A DNA stretch of 8,915 nucleotides, taken from IMG/VR virus record IMGVR_UViG_2778261203_000002; one strand, given 5' to 3'. This DNA is from a virus (lineage: Duplodnaviria > Heunggongvirae > Uroviricota > Caudoviricetes). How positions within the stretch are numbered: position 1 is the first letter of the stretch; every line of letters begins with the position of its first letter. A program made the position numbers and the translations under genes. Below are positions 1,466-7,774 of the stretch, in pieces. The notes below the pieces were generated by a model. The model was not told where the DNA came from. It saw only the letters and a program-made list of their open reading frames with translations, and made no database searches.

Positions 1466-2004
1466 TTTACCCAACGAATACAGGAAAAAGCGGAGAACAC
1501 CTTCGCCTCACCACGCTGGAAAGTGTCTGGATTCAGGGAAAACTACGTATGTGGGGGCGCTGGTCGTATATTGGCGGTGGCAGGTCAGGGAATATGTTCA
1601 ATCAGTTGTTGGCATCCAAAAAACTGACGAAAACAGCCATTAATGAAGCCCTGCGCAGAATGAAAAAAGCGGGAATAGAGAAAGCTGAGCTGGAAGCGTT
1701 TTTGCGAGAGATGATCAACGGCAAGCAAAAGAGCTGGCTGGCGCATTGTACTGATGCAGAGGCGTTATGTATTGATCGAGTCATAAGTGAGGTGCTGGCA
1801 GAGCATCCAGGATTGATTTGCATTCTCCGGCAACGCTATGAAGGGCGGGGGATGACTAAGCGCAAAATGGCTGAATTGCTAAATGATGCACACCCAGAGT
1901 GGTGTTTTAGCACATGCGAAAAACGGATTGCTAATTGGTTAGCTGTTGCTGAGTATGCCCTATATATTCCCATGCGTGAATCATTTGCTGAGAAAATGGC
2001 TTGA
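1462..2004 (+). CDS. Putative late-gene antiterminator (Q-like)
   Basis: 180-aa ORF, translationally coupled to the upstream gene, occupying the canonical Q position: last gene of the nin module, followed within about 80 bp by a strong intrinsic terminator and then the lysis cassette. It contains Cys pairs (C-x7-C, C-x3-C) compatible with a zinc-binding motif. The Q assignment is by position and general features only; I do not recognise it as lambda Q or phage 82 Q. Confidence 0.55.
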   Translation: MIYPTNTGKSGEHLRLTTLESVWIQGKLRMWGRWSYIGGGRSGNMFNQLLASKKLTKTAINEALRRMKKAGIEKAELEAFLREMINGKQKSWLAHCTDAEALCIDRVISEVLAEHPGLICILRQRYEGRGMTKRKMAELLNDAHPEWCFSTCEKRIANWLAVAEYALYIPMRESFAEKMA

Positions 2005-2084
2005 TTTCTTACGTATAAACTGCTTCAATTTTGCTATGCTTCGCAAAGCTGTATCGCGAGGCGGATTGCAGACATGGACATCGT

Positions 2085-2111
2085 AAAAAAACCGCTTAAT
2101 GCGGTTTTTTT
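2085..2111 (+). terminator. Rho-independent terminator (A-run, 5-bp GC stem ACCGC/GCGGT, loop TTAAT, T-run)
   Basis: Sequence AAAAAAACCGCTTAATGCGGTTTTTTT is seen directly. The stem is flanked by an A-tract upstream and a T-tract downstream, so it could terminate in either direction. It lies just downstream of the Q-like gene, making it a candidate for the Q transcript terminator or tR'. Confidence 0.7.
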
Positions 2112-2132
2112 ACGTCAGGAAAGCAGGGGAGA

Positions 2133-2270
2133 ATGCTGCTAGTTGGGCAACTGGTCTTTCTGCTCCAAATTATAACAGAGACCAGTTATAGTTTCGGTGC
2201 TGTGTTTTTTTTACAATATTGTGATAACACATTGCTGGCGGGAGTTTTGATATTTCTTGGCAGGGGCTGA
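2133..2270 (+). CDS. Hypothetical small hydrophobic protein (45 aa), unverified
   Basis: ATG at 2133 preceded by a purine-rich AGGGGAGA; it translates to MLLVGQLVFLLQIITETSYSFGAVFFLQYCDNTLLAGVLIFLGRG, which has one or two hydrophobic stretches. It lies between two intrinsic terminators. The SD-to-start spacing is short and there is no homology support. Confidence 0.25.
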   Translation: MLLVGQLVFLLQIITETSYSFGAVFFLQYCDNTLLAGVLIFLGRG

Positions 2271-2431
2271 TGATGCGTTATCCTGATGTCGTCAACTCAT
2301 ATAAAATGAGATGAGAGATCATTGCAGGGTGGTTTGTAATTCGCTGTTTAGCGGGACAATATGTTGTCTGATACAAGACACCCGACGCCTCAGATTACTA
2401 TAATAAAGACGAAGCATCCTTTGTATTGACC

Positions 2432-2457
2432 AACCGCCTGTTTAGGCGGTTCTTTTT
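2432..2457 (+). terminator. Rho-independent terminator (7-bp stem AACCGCC/GGCGGTT, loop TGTTTA, then CTTTTTG)
   Basis: Perfect 7-bp inverted repeat followed by a T-run, seen directly. It is the second terminator downstream of the Q-like gene and is an alternative candidate for tR'. Confidence 0.65.
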
Positions 2458-2989
2458 GGGCTGGTTTATTGTATGCCAAATGATTATTAAAAAGGTTGTG
2501 TTAATAACAAAATCCGAAATAATATGCCTGCATATTTTTATCTTGCTTATATTCTGCATATTGTGCATAGCAGGCTCATCCCTGCAATCAAAACTGTATG
2601 ATGAGTATTTTTTGTTTTCCTTTTTTCCAGTCATCTGATGATGACCTGCTTCTTTTTAATCCGGATCGACATCAGTTTTTTAAGATAATTCCTGCGAGTT
2701 ATATGCATAAATACCACAAACTCCGCATTTTATGTGGTTGGGAGTTGCCGGGCGCGCAGTGAGTTTGCTAAGAAAACTCCTGCATGGTGAATCCCCCTGT
2801 GCGGTGGGGTGATACCATTAACCTTTTCTGTCGCCGACAGGTATCACGAACATTTTGTTCACCGGGAGGCACCCGGCACCATGCACTTCAATAGATTCTC
2901 TCCACATTATGGATATTCTTTCAGAATATCCCACGCAGACTTTGTGTAAATGTTAACAAATGTGCGTTTTATTTGATCTGATTCGCTGT

Positions 2990-3048: not shown

Positions 3049-3477
3049 ATGGGTTTTCGTAGCGCATCAATTCTTACGTTGATTATTAGTGGGATTATTA
3101 TCGGGTGCACTGATGCTGTATCGACAAATTATCATGACCGTACATCATATTACTCCGATAAAGCAATAGAGACACAGTATGTGAGTTCATCTGAACGTAC
3201 TTCTGATGTTAGTGAGGATATCCGTCTGTATGCCCATCAAATCAAGAGCGCCATCGAAAAACAGTTCGGGGATGCGAGTAAGTATTCAGGAAAAGAGTGT
3301 ACACTGAGAATGCATATGGCCCCGAATGGCCTTCTACTGGAGGTTAAAAGAGAAAGTGGAGACCTCGATTTATGTCGTGAAGCGATGAATGCGATAAAGA
3401 ATGCTGATATACCTGCCCCCCCTTCGCCGGAAGTATATAAAGTATTTCAAAATGGGGTGCTGGATTTTAAACCCTGA
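3049..3477 (+). CDS. Lipoprotein with C-terminal TolA domain III-like domain
   Basis: 142-aa ORF with a GAGGA RBS. N-terminus MGFRSASILTLIISGIIIGC has a hydrophobic core and a lipobox (IIGC, Cys20 at nt 3106-3108); Thr at +2 predicts outer-membrane sorting. The C-terminal ~85 residues (YAHQIKSAIEKQFGDASKYSGKECTLRMHMAPNGLLLEVKRESGDLDLCREAMNAIKNADIPAPPSPEVYKVFQNGVLDFKP) align along their whole length with my recollection of the E. coli TolA C-terminal domain, including the two Cys residues and the terminal LDFKP. Identity was not computed. Confidence 0.85.
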   Translation: MGFRSASILTLIISGIIIGCTDAVSTNYHDRTSYYSDKAIETQYVSSSERTSDVSEDIRLYAHQIKSAIEKQFGDASKYSGKECTLRMHMAPNGLLLEVKRESGDLDLCREAMNAIKNADIPAPPSPEVYKVFQNGVLDFKP

Positions 3478-3627: not shown

Positions 3628-4023
3628 GTGGGATTAAAGAAAATCGTTATGTTGACTTTTTGGGTCGGTTTTGTTGCGGGATGCACACCTTTACACCCTT
3701 CAGATTGCCACAAAACTACTGCTACAGGTAGTTGCAGTTCAGGACGCTGGGATGATCAGGATGAATGGGGGGCGCAAGCGCGGGGAATCAGAGCTGCAAT
3801 TAATGCCAAACTTGATGAGCCGCATAACTGGAAAGGGAAAAAATGCAGGTTGCATATGGAATTCTCTCAGGATGGCACGGCGTTAAAAATATCTACCAGT
3901 AACGGTGATAAAGCCTATTGCGAAGCGATAAAGTCCGCAGCTCATAAAGCCAAATTTCCGGCCTTCAACAATCCGGAAGTCTACAGAGATTTTCAGAAAT
4001 CTGGCTTTGACATGCGAGGTTAG
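3628..4023 (+). CDS. Lipoprotein, divergent paralogue of the upstream TolA-III-like lipoprotein
   Basis: 131-aa ORF starting at GTG 3628, with GAGGAG 6 nt upstream. Signal peptide MGLKKIVMLTFWVGFVAGC has lipobox VAGC (Cys19, nt 3682-3684) and Thr at +2. The C-terminal region (GKKCRLHMEFSQDGTALKISTSNGDKAYCEAIKSAAHKAKFPAFNNPEVYRDFQ) shares the K-x-C-x-L, D/NG, GD-x-x-x-C and PEVY-x-x-FQ pattern with the upstream paralogue and with TolA domain III. Confidence 0.8.
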   Translation: MGLKKIVMLTFWVGFVAGCTPLHPSDCHKTTATGSCSSGRWDDQDEWGAQARGIRAAINAKLDEPHNWKGKKCRLHMEFSQDGTALKISTSNGDKAYCEAIKSAAHKAKFPAFNNPEVYRDFQKSGFDMRG

Positions 4024-4172: not shown

Positions 4173-4274
4173 ATTGCATCGTCTCCAGCATATATATCAA
4201 TTAAGGCTCTGATTGATGTGTCTGAAAGCCTACACATAATAACTATGCCATCCGTTCCGTGCGGAGGTGAGGCT

Positions 4275-4490
4275 ATGAAATCCATGGACAAAATTTCAAC
4301 AGGCATTGCCTACGGCACCTCCGCAGGCAGTGCTGGCTACTGGTTTTTACAGTTGCTCGATAGAGTAACTCCGTCACAGTGGGCTGCAATCGGTGTGCTG
4401 GGTAGTCTGGTATTTGGCCTGCTGACGTACCTGACAAACCTTTATTTCAAGATTAAAGAAGATAAGCGCAAGGCTGCGAGAGGTGAATAA
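4275..4490 (+). CDS. Phage 21-type class II holin/antiholin (pinholin S21 family), dual-start
   Basis: Translation [71 protein letters not shown] matches phage 21 S as I recall it, with the Met1-Lys2-Ser3-Met4 dual-start motif (antiholin from ATG 4275, holin from ATG 4284). A GGAGGTGA RBS lies at 4264-4271. The track ORF from 4218 is an upstream extension with no support. The TAA stop overlaps the endolysin ATG at 4490. Confidence 0.9.
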
Positions 4491-4987
4491 TGCCTCCATC
4501 ATTACGAAAAGTCGTTGCTGCTGCTATTGGTGGCGGAGCAATTGCTATAGCATCAGTGTTAATCACTGGCCCAAGTGGTAACGATGGTCTGGAAGGTGTC
4601 AGCTACATACCATACAAAGATATTGTTGGTGTATGGACTGTATGTCACGGGCATACAGGAAAAGACATCATGCTCGGTAAAACGTATACCAAAGCAGAAT
4701 GCAAAACACTCTTGAATAAAGACCTTGCCACGGTCGCCAGACAAATTAACCCGTACATCAAAGTCGATATACCGGAAACAACGCGCGGCGCTCTTTACTC
4801 ATTCGTTTACAACGTGGGTGCTGGCAATTTCAGAACATCGACGCTTCTTCGCAAAATAAACCAGGGCGATATCAAAGGCGCATGTGATCAGCTACGTCGC
4901 TGGACATATGCTGGCGGTAAGCAATGGAAAGGTCTCATGACTCGTCGTGAGATTGAGCGTGAAATCTGTTTGTGGGGTCAGCAATGA
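4490..4987 (+). CDS. SAR endolysin (phage 21 R-type lysozyme, glycoside hydrolase family 24)
   Basis: 165-aa ORF. The N-terminal Gly/Ala-rich weakly hydrophobic segment ([20 protein letters not shown]) is typical of a signal-anchor-release domain, followed by a T4-lysozyme-like catalytic region. Near-identical to R21 from memory. Its stop overlaps the Rz start (ATGA at 4984-4987). Confidence 0.92.
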
Positions 4988-5448
4988 ACAGAGTAACCGC
5001 GATTATCTCCGCTCTGGTTATCTGCATCATCGTCTGCCTGTCATGGGCTGTTAATCATTACCGTGATAACGCCATTACCTACAAAGCCCAGCGCGACAAA
5101 AATGCCAGAGAACTGAAGCTGGCGAACGCGGCAATTACTGACATGCAGATGCGTCAGCGTGATGTTGCTGCGCTCGATGCAAAATACACGAAGGAGTTAG
5201 CTGATGCGAAAGCTGAAAATGATGCTCTGCGTGATGATGTTGCCGCTGGTCGTCGTCGGTTGCACATCAAAGCAGTCTGTCAGTCAGTGCGTGAAGCCAC
5301 CACCGCCTCCGGCGTGGATAATGCAGCCTCCTCCCGACTGGCAGACACCGCTGAACGGGATTATTTCACCCTCCGGGAACGACTGGTAATGATGCAGGCC
5401 CAACTTGAAGGTGCTCAGCAATACATAACCGAGCAGTGTTTAAAGTAA
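4984..5448 (+). CDS. Rz inner-membrane spanin (i-spanin)
   Basis: Start taken at ATG 4984 ([55 protein letters not shown]...), which matches lambda-family Rz almost residue for residue from memory: an N-terminal transmembrane helix followed by coiled-coil periplasmic domains. The track ORF from 4972 is an in-frame upstream extension. Confidence 0.9.
5204..5389 (+). CDS. Rz1 outer-membrane lipoprotein spanin (o-spanin), embedded in the +1 frame of Rz
   Basis: 61-aa ORF wholly inside Rz in another frame. It has a lipobox (VVGC) and a proline-rich mature region ([15 protein letters not shown]), matching lambda Rz1 from memory. Confidence 0.85.
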
Positions 5449-5585
5449 AATCTTAACTACAATATGATTCATTTTGATGATTGTTTCATAAGGAACAGTG
5501 AAGTAAGATCTAAGAGGAGTTAAATTTTATACAGTATAATCATAGTATTGCAGCAAGGTGGTTATAATTGAAAGAATATTTAGAT

Positions 5586-7043
5586 ATGAATACATCTCAT
5601 GTAAGAGTTGTTACTCATATGTGTGGGTTCCTGGTTTGGCTCTATAGTCTTTCAATGTTGCCACCAATGGTTGTAGCATTGTTTTATAAAGAAAAAAGCC
5701 TGTTTGTTTTCTTTATAACTTTCGTTATATTTTTTTGCATTGGTGGCGGAGCGTGGTATACAACTAAGAAATCTGGCATTCAATTACGTACCCGTGATGG
5801 GTTTATTATAATTGTAATGTTTTGGATTTTGTTTTCTGTTATTAGTGCATTCCCTTTATGGATTGACTCAGAACTTAATTTAACGTTCATTGATGCTCTG
5901 TTTGAAGGGGTTTCTGGAATAACAACAACAGGAGCAACTGTAATTGATGATGTTAGTTCATTACCTCGGGCATATTTGTACTATCGGTCACAGTTAAATT
6001 TTATAGGTGGTTTAGGAGTTATTGTTCTGGCGGTTGCTGTATTGCCATTATTGGGTATTGGTGGTGCAAAGCTTTATCAGTCAGAAATGCCGGGGCCATT
6101 TAAGGATGACAAACTCACTCCCCGCCTGGCCGATACGTCACGGACACTGTGGATAACTTATTCTTTATTAGGTATTGCTTGTATTGTCTGTTATAGACTT
6201 GCAGGAATGCCTTTGTTTGATGCTATTTGTCACGGGATTTCCACAGTTTCGCTTGGTGGTTTCTCAACTCATAGCGAGAGTATCGGATATTTTAATAACT
6301 ATTTGGTTGAGCTGGTGGCTGGTTCTTTTTCCCTGCTATCGGCTTTCAACTTCACTCTTTGGTATATTGTTATTAGCAGGAAAACGATAAAACCTTTAAT
6401 CAGAGATATTGAACTTCGTTTCTTTCTGTTAATAGCCTTAGGGGTGATCATTGTTACCTCTTTCCAGGTCTGGCATATAGGTATGTATGACTTGCATGGA
6501 AGTTTTATTCATTCGTTTTTTCTTGCCAGCTCCATGCTCACTGATAATGGTTTAGCTACGCAGGATTATGCAAGTTGGCCCACGCACACGATAGTGTTTT
6601 TGCTGTTGTCAAGTTTCTTTGGGGGATGTATAGGTTCAACTTGTGGTGGAATTAAGTCACTTCGATTTCTTATACTTTTCAAACAAAGCAAACACGAGAT
6701 AAATCAGCTTTCTCATCCCAGAGCGTTGTTGAGTGTAAATGTAGGAGGGAAGATAGTTACAGATCGTGTAATGAGGTCTGTATGGAGTTTCTTTTTTCTT
6801 TATACTCTCTTCACGGTGTTTTTTATACTGGTGTTAAATGGTATGGGATATGATTTTCTTACATCATTTGCAACAGTGGCTGCATGTATTAATAATATGG
6901 GATTAGGTTTTGGGGCTACTGCATCGTCATTCGGAGTGCTTAATGACATTGCAAAATGTTTAATGTGCATAGCTATGATTCTTGGTCGCCTTGAAATTTA
7001 TCCTGTTATTATATTGTTTTCAGGTTTTTTTTGGCGCTCCTAA
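5586..7043 (+). CDS. trkG: TrkH/TrkG-family potassium uptake membrane protein (Trk system)
   Basis: Multi-pass hydrophobic protein of about 485 aa from ATG 5586 (MNTSHVRVVTHMCGF...), with repeated Gly-rich selectivity-filter-like segments (GITTTGATV, GIGGAK, SLGGFST, GLGFGA) typical of TrkH/KtrB. The sequence and its position directly after Rz/Rz1 match E. coli trkG of the Rac prophage as I recall it. An alternative TTG start at 5568 has AGGTGG 6 nt upstream. The gene is visibly more AT-rich than the flanking phage genes. Confidence 0.9.
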   Translation: MNTSHVRVVTHMCGFLVWLYSLSMLPPMVVALFYKEKSLFVFFITFVIFFCIGGGAWYTTKKSGIQLRTRDGFIIIVMFWILFSVISAFPLWIDSELNLTFIDALFEGVSGITTTGATVIDDVSSLPRAYLYYRSQLNFIGGLGVIVLAVAVLPLLGIGGAKLYQSEMPGPFKDDKLTPRLADTSRTLWITYSLLGIACIVCYRLAGMPLFDAICHGISTVSLGGFSTHSESIGYFNNYLVELVAGSFSLLSAFNFTLWYIVISRKTIKPLIRDIELRFFLLIALGVIIVTSFQVWHIGMYDLHGSFIHSFFLASSMLTDNGLATQDYASWPTHTIVFLLLSSFFGGCIGSTCGGIKSLRFLILFKQSKHEINQLSHPRALLSVNVGGKIVTDRVMRSVWSFFFLYTLFTVFFILVLNGMGYDFLTSFATVAACINNMGLGFGATASSFGVLNDIAKCLMCIAMILGRLEIYPVIILFSGFFWRS

Positions 7044-7180: not shown

Positions 7181-7774
7181 ATGAGCGAGAAATTAAAGAT
7201 AGTCTATCGCCCATTACAAGAATTGTCACCGTATGCGCACAACGCCAGGACGCACAGTACTGAGCAGGTGGCACAACTGGTAGAAAGTATTAAGCAATTC
7301 GGCTGGACTAATCCGGTGCTGATTGACGAAAAGGGCGAAATTATTGCGGGTCACGGTCGTGTTATGGCGGCTGAAATGCTCAAAATGGATTCTGTTCCGG
7401 TCATTGTTCTGTCTGGCCTGACGGATGAGCAGAAAAAGGCGTACCGCCTGGCAGATAATCGCCTGCCGATGAATGCTGGCTGGGATGAAGATCTGTTGCG
7501 GATGGAGCTGTCGGACCTAATCAATGCTGATTTTGATGTCTCCCTGACAGGCTTCATCCCGACAGAAATTGATGAACTGTTGACGGATGTTTTGCCCGGT
7601 ATGATATTCAGATTGCTGGTTATGGGGTTGGCGATAAAAATCAGCAACGCCAGCAGGAATTACTGCGGATTGAACGTGAATATAACAATCAGCGTCTGCA
7701 ACTTGAACGTGACTATGCAGATAAATCCCGTGGGATGTCAAATCATGTTTTTCAGGAGAAAATGCAGGCTCTGA
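7181..7774 (+). CDS. ynaK: ParB-like nuclease-domain protein, probably 3'-disrupted at a deletion junction
   Basis: ATG 7181 with AAGG 4 nt upstream. The N-terminal ~140 aa look like a ParB/sulfiredoxin-type domain, including the GHGRVMAA motif (conserved Gly-x-x-Arg). From about nt 7600 the same DNA also encodes, in another frame, a tape-measure-like coiled coil, so the last ~58 codons of this ORF (LPGMIFRLLVMGLAIKISNASRNY...) are probably not native. The gene symbol is assigned by synteny with trkG in Rac, not by sequence recognition. Confidence 0.6.
   Translation: MSEKLKIVYRPLQELSPYAHNARTHSTEQVAQLVESIKQFGWTNPVLIDEKGEIIAGHGRVMAAEMLKMDSVPVIVLSGLTDEQKKAYRLADNRLPMNAGWDEDLLRMELSDLINADFDVSLTGFIPTEIDELLTDVLPGMIFRLLVMGLAIKISNASRNYCGLNVNITISVCNLNVTMQINPVGCQIMFFRRKCRL

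Follow-up and report, generated by a model that had tools for sequence, protein, structure and literature searches.

A probable phage-21-like late regulatory region and a decayed STnc100-family RNA downstream of a DUF1133 gene in a lambdoid prophage

The stretch of DNA analysed here (the window; 8,915 nt of the Caudoviricetes record IMGVR_UViG_2778261203_000002) carries a gene of the Pfam family DUF1133 whose stop codon lies at 2002-2004. It is followed by two terminator-like hairpins, an intact STnc100 RNA, two TolA-like genes and a lysis region (Table 1). The TolA-like genes lie between the RNAs and the holin gene, and the lysis region (4218-5448) encodes a phage-21-type holin (Pfam PF04971), a lysozyme and Rz/Rz1-like ORFs. 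No tRNA genes were found within the window. A preliminary description of this DNA had reported the two hairpins and a 45-codon ORF between them, and all three are present where it had placed them.

Table 1. Features of the region between the Q gene and the intact STnc100 copy
Feature	Position	Strand	Basis
Q21-type antiterminator gene (Pfam DUF1133), 180 aa	1462..2004	+	Profile matches (see text)
A-rich tract 5' of the -35 box, putatively UP-element-like	1991..1997	+	Conserved columns
Predicted late promoter, -35 box TTGATT, overlapping the Q stop codon	2001..2006	+	Conservation
AAACTGCT, candidate promoter-proximal Q-binding subsite between -35 and -10	2017..2024	+	Position only
Predicted late promoter, -10 box TTCAAT, 17-bp spacer from the -35 box	2024..2029	+	Conservation
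TATGCT, -10-like analogue of a sigma-dependent pause element	2035..2040	+	Conservation, phage 21 annotation
Predicted late-leader RNA, ~76 nt	2036..2111	+	Predicted start to end of T-run
Leader 5' hairpin, GCUUCGC / GCGAGGC	2038..2062	+	MFE fold
First terminator, probable tR' analogue, symmetric, A7/T7 flanks	2082..2114	.	Fold, relatives
Post-tR' spacer common to other type-A prophages	2112..2164	+	Alignment
45-codon ORF, very probably a chance ORF and not a gene	2133..2270	+	Comparison
Decayed copy of a ~300-nt structured RNA module of the STnc100 family	2165..2457	+	nhmmer, covariation
Hairpin H1 of the module, AAAUUAUAAC / GUUAUAGUUU	2167..2194	+	Fold, exchanges
Long hairpin H2 of the module	2210..2295	+	Helices 2-4
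14-codon mini-ORF MMRYPDVVNSYKMR on the H2 3' arm, probably non-coding; ATG overlaps the stop of the 45-codon ORF (TGATG)	2270..2314	+	
Second terminator, the terminator of the STnc100-family module	2432..2457	+	Invariant stem, model alignment
Intact STnc100 copy downstream (context)	2752..2938	+	Rfam RF02076, 86.6 bits (threshold 47), E 5e-18, full length

The product of the DUF1133 gene matches the Pfam DUF1133 profile at 2.5e-107 and also, weakly, Phage_antitermQ. A profile of 20 homologues matches the Q21 structures 6JNX and 6P18 in an hmmsearch of the PDB (E 1.5e-5), and an hhalign comparison of the window Q with phage 21 Q gives 94.3% probability and an E value of 1.1e-7 over 132 columns (Q21 residues 7-151). 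Judging by these profile matches, the gene upstream of the first hairpin is a distant homologue of Q21. DUF1133 was not mentioned in the literature that we searched. We dropped the possibility that the window Q is an AntQ orthologue: AntQ of SL1344 is a 229-aa protein without significant similarity to it. In one of the prophages compared, L008, an isrK module is found behind a DUF1133 Q gene and not behind AntQ.

There is a conserved promoter-like arrangement at the end of the Q gene. The -35 position reads TTGNNT in all 74 distinct type-A variants scored and the -10 position reads TTCAAT in 70 of them, the remaining four having TTGAAT or TTTAAT. In a subgroup with a 192-aa Q protein the -35 box is TTGCAA or a close variant and the -10 box TTGAAT or TTAAAT, at unchanged spacing. 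At position 2, TTCAAT has T where an A is nearly universal. For this reason the promoter scan did not list it, and both the strength of the promoter and its exact start site are uncertain. Nevertheless, the -35 box, the 17-bp spacer and TTCAAT are conserved both in the 74 variants and in the second Q subgroup. Further upstream, the columns of the A-rich tract reach at least 80-90% conservation across 66 distinct relatives in which the flanking coding or non-coding context differs.

The predicted transcription start falls at 2034-2036, and TATGCT would then occupy the first transcribed bases. The consensus at this position is TA[C/T/A]GCT, with A2 and T6 invariant in the 74 variants, and the 192-aa Q subgroup has TAGGCT or TAAGCT. 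The annotated pause element of phage 21, TAAGCT(G), begins 1 nt after the mapped start (+2), at a comparable distance from the -10 box. The match suggests that TATGCT is an analogue of this sigma-dependent pause element. TATGCT was also considered as a -10 box, with a start near 2047. We rejected this because the arrangement TTGNNT, 17 bp, TTNAAT is conserved and TAAGCT of phage 21 is a pause element; there is, moreover, no -35 box conserved 17 bp upstream of TATGCT. The layout of promoter and pause element is conserved in 74-78 distinct variants as well as in the second Q subgroup.

Two 8-bp direct repeats of the QBE kind were sought between the -35 and -10 boxes. The proximal 8 bp, AAACTGCT, are at least 90% conserved in the 66 relatives and stand in the same register as QBEd of the annotated phage 21 promoter; the preceding 8 nt are variable and TTACGTAT shows no repeat. 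In sequence, AAACTGCT is unlike the phage 21 QBE, and it is a candidate by its position only. No Q-binding repeat of the phage 21 kind is recognisable in the window promoter, where the position of the upstream subsite is not conserved.

The first hairpin is a perfect 14-nt inverted repeat (2082-2095 / 2101-2114, CGTAAAAAAACCGC / GCGGTTTTTTTACG) with a 5-nt loop. It begins 78 nt past the Q-like stop codon, close to the 80 bp estimated earlier, and was missed by a consensus terminator scan because its T-run is absorbed into the stem. The + strand folds at -19.7 kcal/mol (z -8.2; equalled by 0 of 200 shuffles) and the - strand at -19.5 kcal/mol, and from this symmetric folding the hairpin looks bidirectional. 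A strict hairpin with a T-run is found at the same place in 75 of 78 distinct relatives, in which the stems use differing cores (CCCGC, CCGC, CCACC). A DUF1133 Q gene lies upstream of 151 of the 153 leaders with enough upstream DNA, and in 124 of these it is adjacent. Given its symmetry, the hairpin could merely end transcription of the Q operon or of the opposite strand. The Q21 homology, the promoter layout, the terminators of the relatives and the linkage to DUF1133 are the reasons why it is best read as the tR' of a phage-21-type late cassette; a short RNA started at the late promoter of a phage-21-like prophage would most likely terminate here.

Since the predicted promoter lies 5' of the first hairpin, the leader RNA is predicted to span about 2036-2111 and not the 320-bp interval between the hairpins. 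The predicted leader measures 66-85 nt (median 77) from start to end of the T-run in 75 relatives, and that of the window folds at -28.9 kcal/mol (z -4.3). Its 5' hairpin lies inside a box that is conserved in all type-A leaders; this box served as the search pattern and its conservation is not independent evidence. The preliminary description had correctly seen the region as the Q, late promoter and tR' of a lambdoid prophage, had taken one of the hairpins to be tR' (the first one fits, with strict terminators in the relatives and the phage 21 layout) and had expected a short leader, which is indeed the most likely product. Its placing of PR', the Q site and the leader between the hairpins, however, needs revision: the predicted promoter and the presumed Q-loading signals are in the 80 bp from the Q stop to the first hairpin, at which the leader would end.

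In 447 of 5,426 complete E. coli genomes the whole sequence behind the first hairpin (2112-2470) is present at 99% identity or more; among the 40 matches listed, none has a feature annotated in it. Near-perfect identity over 447 genomes shows that the segment has spread recently; it is silent on function, and a residual role for the decayed RNA is conceivable. The first 53 positions, the spacer, align with the post-tR' stretch of six other prophages (L189, L206, L223, L204, L187 and L183), relative to which the window lineage has one 9-nt and one 1-nt deletion. In relatives, …LVVANTGLSAC behind tR' suggested what might be left of a lipoprotein gene; this was set aside, as the L189 frame crosses apparently non-coding sequence.

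The remainder of the interval is related to a structured RNA module of which nhmmer found 44 distinct copies among the prophage loci compared, mostly behind tRNA genes and in the same interval between Q and lysis genes. Compensatory change is seen in 20 of the 65 consensus pairs in an alignment of 14 representatives, where 93.4% of cells are paired. None of 500 shuffles reached the observed paired fraction, the counts of both-sided change or the covariation score, and slid-alignment controls gave 4-15 pairs. H2 (helices 2-4) accounts for 31 pairs, 10 with compensatory change, and has five mismatches in the window copy. H1 is maintained via U-G, C-G and U-A exchanges in three lineages. Pairing by eye gives another stem sequence, GGCUAUG / UGUAGCC, at this place in other lineages, and RNAalifold, run on the 14 representatives, gives the H1 helix in a shifted register. 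A better-kept copy, that of ETEC1731, can be aligned to the STnc100 model in full, with a score of 27.3 bits (E 3.8e-4) where the threshold is 47.

Decay of the window copy is evident: 50 of the 65 pairs are formed and 15 broken, about 20 nt are missing, one inner hairpin is fully lost and two others partly. The terminator and five of the six closing-stem pairs are kept. A search with Rfam found no STnc100 signal in 1990-2480 even at E 10. We read 2165-2457 as the degenerate remains of an STnc100-family structured RNA and not as a gene for a small protein, and the interval as a whole as the post-tR' spacer 2112-2164 fused to this RNA, a relic and not a separate regulatory unit.

The second hairpin consists of 2432-2451 (AACCGCCTGTTTAGGCGGTT), with eight pairs of which five are G-C, followed by CTTTTTGG, and is among the stronger of 11 terminator-like sites in the window. 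A 51-nt segment that includes it and a small upstream hairpin (2408-2458) has a folding energy of -16.0 kcal/mol (z -3.85). In the alignment to the STnc100 model, the second hairpin corresponds to the last hairpin of the model. All 14 representatives keep the stem ACCGCC / GGCGGT, with a closing pair that varies (U-A, A-U, C-G) and with differing loops. The T-run is on the + strand only and reads UCUUUUU in the window and U7-U8 in relatives.

Several features of the interval would also suit a working sRNA gene, occupying all of it or its 3' part, expressed from its own promoter or by processing of read-through RNA, ending at the second hairpin and acting in trans with Hfq as PasD does. The module family covaries, the terminator and the AU-rich linker are intact and a promoter-like site at 2375-2404 (AAGACA, 18 bp, TATAAT) scores 10 of 12. 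Additionally, PasD, which Zhu et al. tied to STnc100, is an expressed, Hfq-dependent RNA (PMC8550237), and STnc100 RNA has been found in vesicle preparations (PMC12370729; 10.64898/2026.05.13.724894). However, the TATAAT lies within the AU-rich linker of STnc100 and is replaced by TTTAAT, TAACAAT or TTACAAT in other lineages; with the -10 box not kept, the site is unlikely to be the start of a tiny RNA. The lost nucleotides, the destroyed inner hairpin, the broken pairs and the absence of an Rfam signal in the window copy also argue against a working gene, which we consider unlikely. A related proposal is that the whole ~300-nt module (H1, H2, STnc100-like core, AU-rich linker and terminator) represents an undescribed larger class of prophage RNA, made as the trailer of a tRNA operon or as a read-through product of the late leader and serving as an Hfq-dependent regulator or sponge, with the window copy still partly active. 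We regard this as speculative and unlikely.

The 45-codon ORF has an ATG start, a purine-rich stretch upstream (GGAAAGCAGGGGAGA) and two hydrophobic segments in its predicted peptide (MLLVGQLVFLLQIITETSYSFGAVFFLQYCDNTLLAGVLIFLGRG), and some automatic annotations list it as a hypothetical protein. It might on these grounds encode a small membrane peptide, the product of a moron or a type I toxin, between two terminators. The sources that name it do so only as 'hypothetical' or 'uncharacterised', however, there is no RefSeq feature (PGAP in nearly all records) over it in any genome listed, and it has no Pfam match. The sole GGAG ends 1 nt before the ATG, a poor spacing for a ribosome-binding site. 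The ATG itself was born of the lineage-specific 9-nt deletion, at the junction of which relatives read CGCGCTG, and the ORF crosses a recombination junction such that its first 11 codons and the remainder come from two ancestral segments. Codons 12-45 overlie H1 and the 5' arm and loop of H2, and RNA pairing, including G-U pairs, accounts for their conservation. The length of the T-run at 2204-2211 inside the ORF differs between lineages; loss of one T shifts the frame in 5 of 55 near-identical copies, in which the only SNPs are two non-synonymous and one synonymous, and the frame is broken in all divergent lineages. Comparison across homologous prophages, proposed in the preliminary description, thus finds the RNA structure conserved with covariation and the ORF frame not conserved, and it largely settles a question that had been thought undecidable from the sequence. 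The ORF is very probably not a gene but a non-conserved accident of two deletions and T-rich hairpin arms; a membrane peptide is very unlikely, and the hydrophobic 'hypothetical protein' that some pipelines report in hundreds of E. coli and Shigella genomes would be an artefact over RNA hairpins. The mini-ORF was rejected as a leader peptide on similar evidence. Its ATG and six to eight similar codons are found in four lineages (MHYPDVV, MMRHPYVV, MHHFGVV) and its third-position changes are coding-like, but the non-synonymous changes are paired with compensating changes in the 5' arm of H2. A constraint on the RNA therefore explains the conservation, and the mini-ORF is probably non-coding. 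A Q gene, a terminated RNA of ~76 nt and a 45-codon ORF bear a superficial resemblance to the isrK-orf45-anrP switch (P1-type c4/icd/ant; PMC4825925), of which the segment would be an E. coli version with the short RNA opening orf45 translation in trans, and Rfam isrK gives a weak match at 2038-2111. With 21.6 bits this match falls far short of the threshold of 50, and it consists largely of the terminator hairpin and U-run; no Rfam family reaches threshold in the leader. The window lacks both a C4 RNA and a gene for an antirepressor; for the genuine module of L008 the scores are 67 bits (isrK) and 61 bits (C4). Complementarity between the leader body and 2112-2460 is matched by 128 of 300 shuffles, and relatives that have the isrK module carry it as an insertion 5' of the type-A leader, not 3'. 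The ORF was rejected as Salmonella orf45 and the leader as IsrK, and such a switch is extremely unlikely here.

We consider it likely that the window is part of a Rac-like lambdoid prophage and contains its late regulatory region, for which we infer promoter use, pausing, termination and read-through as follows. A sigma-70 promoter (TTGATT 2001-2006, 17 bp, TTCAAT 2024-2029) would initiate transcription at about 2035, and polymerase would pause at TATGCT, at the very start of the transcript, where Q would load. Without Q, polymerase would halt at the first hairpin (2082-2114) and release the leader RNA of ~76 nt. With Q, it would continue through both hairpins into the TolA-like genes and then the lysis cassette of S21 type; the module terminator, which survives, would be a further stop sensitive to Q. 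An arrangement of this kind is normal for phage regulation and would not surprise a specialist, and its value is mainly for annotation. It would assign a function to an uncharacterised family, DUF1133 proteins being Q21-type antiterminators with their own late promoter, pause box and leader of ~77 nt.

The immI region of phage P1 (c4 RNA, icd and ant, corresponding to isrK-orf45-anrP) shares with the window a short terminated RNA and then a 45-codon ORF, 3' of Q. It differs in its C4 RNA, ant gene and complementarity, and where the real module is present in relatives it lies between Q and the late promoter.

PasD sRNAs are encoded in prophage late regions and are related to STnc100 (Zhu, Shabalina and Storz, 2026, 10.64898/2026.05.13.724894; PMC8550237). 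The module occupies the same niche as STnc100 and PasD, between Q or tRNAs and the lysis genes, and a bona fide STnc100 copy (RF02076) lies 300 nt downstream of it in the window. The ETEC1731 copy covers the whole STnc100 model of 206 positions, with the closing stem, the CGGGAGGCACCCG hairpin, the AU-rich linker and the terminator, although it scores 27 bits against the required 47 and the Rfam model lacks the ~140-nt 5' extension (H1, H2) of the module. We rejected an identity with PasA, PasC or PasD of EPEC E2348/69. At E 1e-5 the module HMM matched none of the PasA, PasC and PasD1 regions of this strain, and the blastn matches of its Pas regions were short and confined to window 2720-2885, which is not part of the module. 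In published RIL-seq tables pasA and pasC are on the opposite strand. The STnc100/PasD group of prophage late-region RNAs would gain a divergent subfamily with a covarying 5' domain.

Short PR'-tR' transcripts include the 6S RNA of lambda and StxS of Stx phages. In Salmonella, IsrJ (74 nt) and IsrK (77 nt) are short terminated RNAs detected experimentally 3' of antQ (PMC4825925). The predicted window leader resembles them in size (~76 nt), in its location directly 3' of a Q-type gene and in its design, in which a promoter is followed by a -10-like box where the RNA begins and then by an intrinsic terminator, and it shares the motifs GCTTCAAT and CTG(A)TATCG with IsrJ. IsrJ, however, goes with a different Q family (that of the Salmonella AntQ), and the window leader is under threshold in every Rfam family; a role in trans or Hfq binding is putative. 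It is conceivable, though unlikely, that the DUF1133-specific leader of ~77 nt acts in trans as an sRNA in the manner of IsrJ.

Among the closest parallels to the proposed arrangement is the late cassette of phage 21, in which Q21 is followed by PR'21, with a QBE and a sigma-dependent pause element, and by tR' (bioRxiv 10.1101/651190; Yin, Kaelber and Ebright, 2019). Our comparison used the annotated genome OL657228. The two Q proteins are only ~23% identical, DUF1133 carrying an insertion of ~30 residues, and the leader is ~76 nt in the window against ~45-50 nt in phage 21. The 8-bp QBE repeats of phage 21, ATTGAGCA and AATGAGCA, have no recognisable counterpart in the window. Unlike phage 21, the window has TTCAAT as its -10 box and a gap of ~2.1 kb between tR' and the holin gene, filled by the RNA module, STnc100 and the two TolA-like genes. 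Nevertheless, the Q proteins are homologous and the promoter, a predicted one in the window, lies at or just past the Q stop in both, the -35 box of phage 21 (TTGACA) being 7 nt after it. The -35 box, 17-bp spacer, -10 box, short gap and TAnGCT (TAAGCT in phage 21, TATGCT in the window) follow in the same order, with an intrinsic terminator within tens of nt. The order of elements and, nearly, their spacing agree with the curated phage 21 annotation (-35, QBE, -10, start, TAAGCT, terminator, tRNAs, S21). Phage 21 and the relatives of the window both have tRNA genes after tR', and the window itself has a phage 21-like lysis region further 3', with a phage-21-type holin, an RrrD-type lysozyme and a spanin-like pair.

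The window belongs to a Rac-like lambdoid prophage of E. coli, in which DUF1367, YbcO and DUF1133 genes are followed by about 1 kb that lacks long ORFs and then by two TolA-C-terminal-domain genes, a phage-21-type holin gene, a lysozyme gene, Rz/Rz1-like ORFs and trkG. The region that separates the DUF1133 gene from the TolA-like gene carries no RefSeq annotation, and about 450 of 5,426 complete E. coli genomes contain positions 1950-2520 with at least 99% identity. As in the Rac prophage, the lysis genes are followed by trkG, a host-type K+ transporter gene, which has a 197-aa ORF on its 3' side. The tandem genes for TolA domain III proteins separate the late leader from the holin gene. The N-termini of both proteins resemble lipoprotein signals (…IIIGC and …FVAGC) and the proteins may act as decoys against phages or colicins that depend on TolA. 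Strain CP53 has a disrupted copy of the first of these genes, with IS5 and IS3 insertions close by.

The regulatory anatomy is ordinary for a lambdoid phage. Pfam assigns the gene upstream of the first hairpin to DUF1133, with a Phage_antitermQ match at threshold level. A profile of 20 DUF1133 homologues matches solved Q21 structures (E 1.5e-5), and hhalign aligns the window protein with phage 21 Q at 94.3% probability (E 1.1e-7; residues 7-151 of 162 covered). By these sequence comparisons the gene is a predicted Q21-type antiterminator.

We examined 27 genomic loci with DUF1133 homologues and more than 160 additional copies of the conserved box 3' of the gene. The layout from promoter to pause (Table) is invariant across 74-78 distinct variants. 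The TTCAAT box lacks the canonical A at position 2. A second subgroup (Q of about 192 aa) follows this plan in other letters: TTGCAA, 17 bp, TTGAAT or TTAAAT, 5 nt, TAGGCT. In the curated genome of phage 21 the -35 box lies 7 nt past the Q stop and the Q-binding element is situated between the -35 and -10 boxes; TAAGCT, the sigma-dependent pause element, starts one base after the mapped start site, and a terminator, tRNA genes and S21 follow. This order matches the window-type layout. By analogy, TATGCT is the predicted pause element and also sets the predicted transcription start. There is no recognisable Q-binding repeat in the conserved promoter region of the window type. The predicted leader RNA is about 76 nt in the window and 66-85 nt (median 77) across variants.

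Features of the late leader region and downstream genes (window positions)
Feature	Position	Strand	Remark
A-tract	5' of -35 box	+	first element of conserved layout
TTGNNT (putative -35 box)	2001-2006	+	TTGATT in window; overlaps DUF1133 stop codon
17-bp spacer	between TTGNNT and TTCAAT	+	final 8 bp conserved, AAACTGCT
TTCAAT (putative -10 box)	2024-2029	+	conserved; 5 nt, then TA[C/T/A]GCT
TA[C/T/A]GCT	2035-2040	+	conserved; TATGCT in window
Predicted transcription start	~2034-2036		by analogy with phage 21
First hairpin	2082-2114		perfect 14-nt inverted repeat
Post-tR' sequence	2112-2164		
Small ORF	2133-2270		45 codons, ATG
9-mer, two copies	2267-2275; 2635-2643	+	
Second hairpin	2432-2451		followed by T-run
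ETEC1731-type homology past second terminator	2457-2604	+	AT-rich, without conserved ORFs
STnc100	2752-2938	+	full-length
TolA-like genes	3049-3477; 3628-4023	+	
trkG	5568-7043	+	
197-aa ORF	7181-7774	+	

The preliminary description had two terminators, one of them probably tR' with a short leader, and both hairpins are present. The first folds at -19.7 kcal/mol (z -8.2), the minus strand folding equally well, and a strict hairpin with a T-run lies downstream of the promoter in 75 of 78 variants, with several different stem sequences. This hairpin is most likely tR'. The short leader is retained, but the predicted promoter lies before the first hairpin in the conserved layout and not between the hairpins, where it had been placed.

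The sequence directly after the first hairpin aligns with post-tR' sequence of other prophages of the window type. From about 2165, there is 57-68% identity, taken as homology, to a segment of other lambdoid prophages. In those prophages it directly follows a tRNA-Gly gene, with Q on one side and TerB, DUF3927 and holin genes on the other. An HMM of this module, built from four lineages, found 44 distinct copies among the collected loci. RNAalifold on 14 representatives gave 65 pairs, 20 with compensatory changes, and 93.4% of alignment cells are paired. Slid controls gave 4-15 pairs and covariation scores of at most 0.12, compared with 0.30 for the module, and none of 500 shuffles came up to the module in paired fraction, in counts of both-sided changes or in covariation score. 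In the predicted architecture two hairpins, H1 and the long H2, precede a closed core that encloses three inner hairpins, and an AU-rich linker joins this core to the terminator; the G-U pairs and T-run place the structure on the + strand. The better-kept ETEC1731 copy, from another prophage, aligns across the whole Rfam STnc100 model (27.3 bits, E 3.8e-4; below the family threshold of 47), and the second hairpin is the counterpart of the terminal hairpin in that model. A bona fide STnc100 (RF02076, 86.6 bits) lies 300 nt past the second terminator, just 5' of the first TolA-like gene, so the late leader holds a tandem pair of STnc100-family units, the first decayed and the second intact.

In related prophages the module follows the tRNA cluster, always directly 3' of tRNA-Gly (loci L003, 3780-4046; L029, 2108-2417; L030, 2343-2414), and L003 has a promoter-like site 5' of the cluster. 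A phage tRNA operon may normally carry this module as its 3' trailer; the window lineage has lost the tRNAs. ETEC1731-type homology continues beyond the second terminator. Additionally, the 9-mer CTGATGATG occurs twice in the late leader (chance expectation about 0.03 per strand). It resembles the reported target motif of the EPEC sRNA PasA (CUGAUGAUGC/G) and is not conserved in other module lineages.

Taken together, the data make it probable that a constitutive late promoter yields a leader ending at the first hairpin. A Q21-like protein would load at the promoter-proximal pause and take polymerase past the first hairpin and then the second, which would be the terminator left over from a decayed STnc100-family RNA, so that transcription would run on into the late genes. 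STnc100 and the related PasD are described sRNAs of prophage late regions (10.64898/2026.05.13.724894; PMC8550237; PMC12370729), and the interval might hold a still-functional sRNA. We consider this unlikely: within the set, degeneration has gone furthest in the window copy, where about 20 nt, all of one inner hairpin and 15 of the 65 pairs are missing and the terminator is the only fully intact part. Rfam gave no match in the window module region, even at E 10. An IsrK-type switch is the least probable of the readings.

The hydrophobic ORF noted in the preliminary description does exist, and a membrane peptide translated from it is highly improbable, though slightly less so than the switch. 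The ORF is a junction of two unrelated ancestral pieces, its ATG was created by a 9-nt deletion in the window lineage, and it overlies H1 and the 5' arm and loop of H2. The length of a T8 run inside it differs from lineage to lineage, and five of 55 near-identical copies lack one of its Ts. It has no family match in Pfam, and sources label it only 'hypothetical'. A mini-ORF overlapping its stop codon recurs in relatives; because the changes that alter its amino acids have compensating changes in the other arm of H2, its conservation is explained by RNA structure. On this evidence we regard the small ORF as spurious. Removal of this ORF, the link between DUF1133 and Q21, with a leader type of its own, and recognition of a divergent STnc100-like subfamily with a 5' domain are the new points, and novelty is limited to these.

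Finally, 151 of the 153 leader copies with sufficient upstream DNA sit 3' of a DUF1133 Q gene, 124 adjacent to it and 26 behind an inserted module, mostly of about 0.9 kb. Salmonella AntQ (229 aa) is of a different Q family, without significant similarity to the window DUF1133 Q. In loci L105, L106 and some 34 further Salmonella prophage contigs (L104-L179) it lies directly 5' of TTGCAA, 17 bp, TATATT and the IsrJ sequence, which ends in a terminator, so that IsrJ is laid out like a PR'-tR' leader. IsrJ is a known 74-nt RNA, whose position we mapped via the published probe (PMC4825925). This pairing of leader type with Q type is what a Q-utilisation site predicts.

In some relatives (26 of 153 loci with the DUF1133-linked leader, e.g. 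L209, L219 and L230) the inserted module lies exactly between the DUF1133 Q gene and the late promoter. In the related prophage locus L008 (3575-4380) the insert is a P1-type immunity module, with c4-a1b1/isrK and C4 RNA (Rfam) ahead of an antirepressor, and is the same module as Salmonella isrK-orf45-anrP. This implies that isrK-orf45-anrP would be an insertion between Q and PR', and that IsrJ, 3' of anrP in Gifsy-1, would be the AntQ late-promoter leader. IsrJ is a different leader of the same design as the DUF1133 leader, paired with a different Q family.
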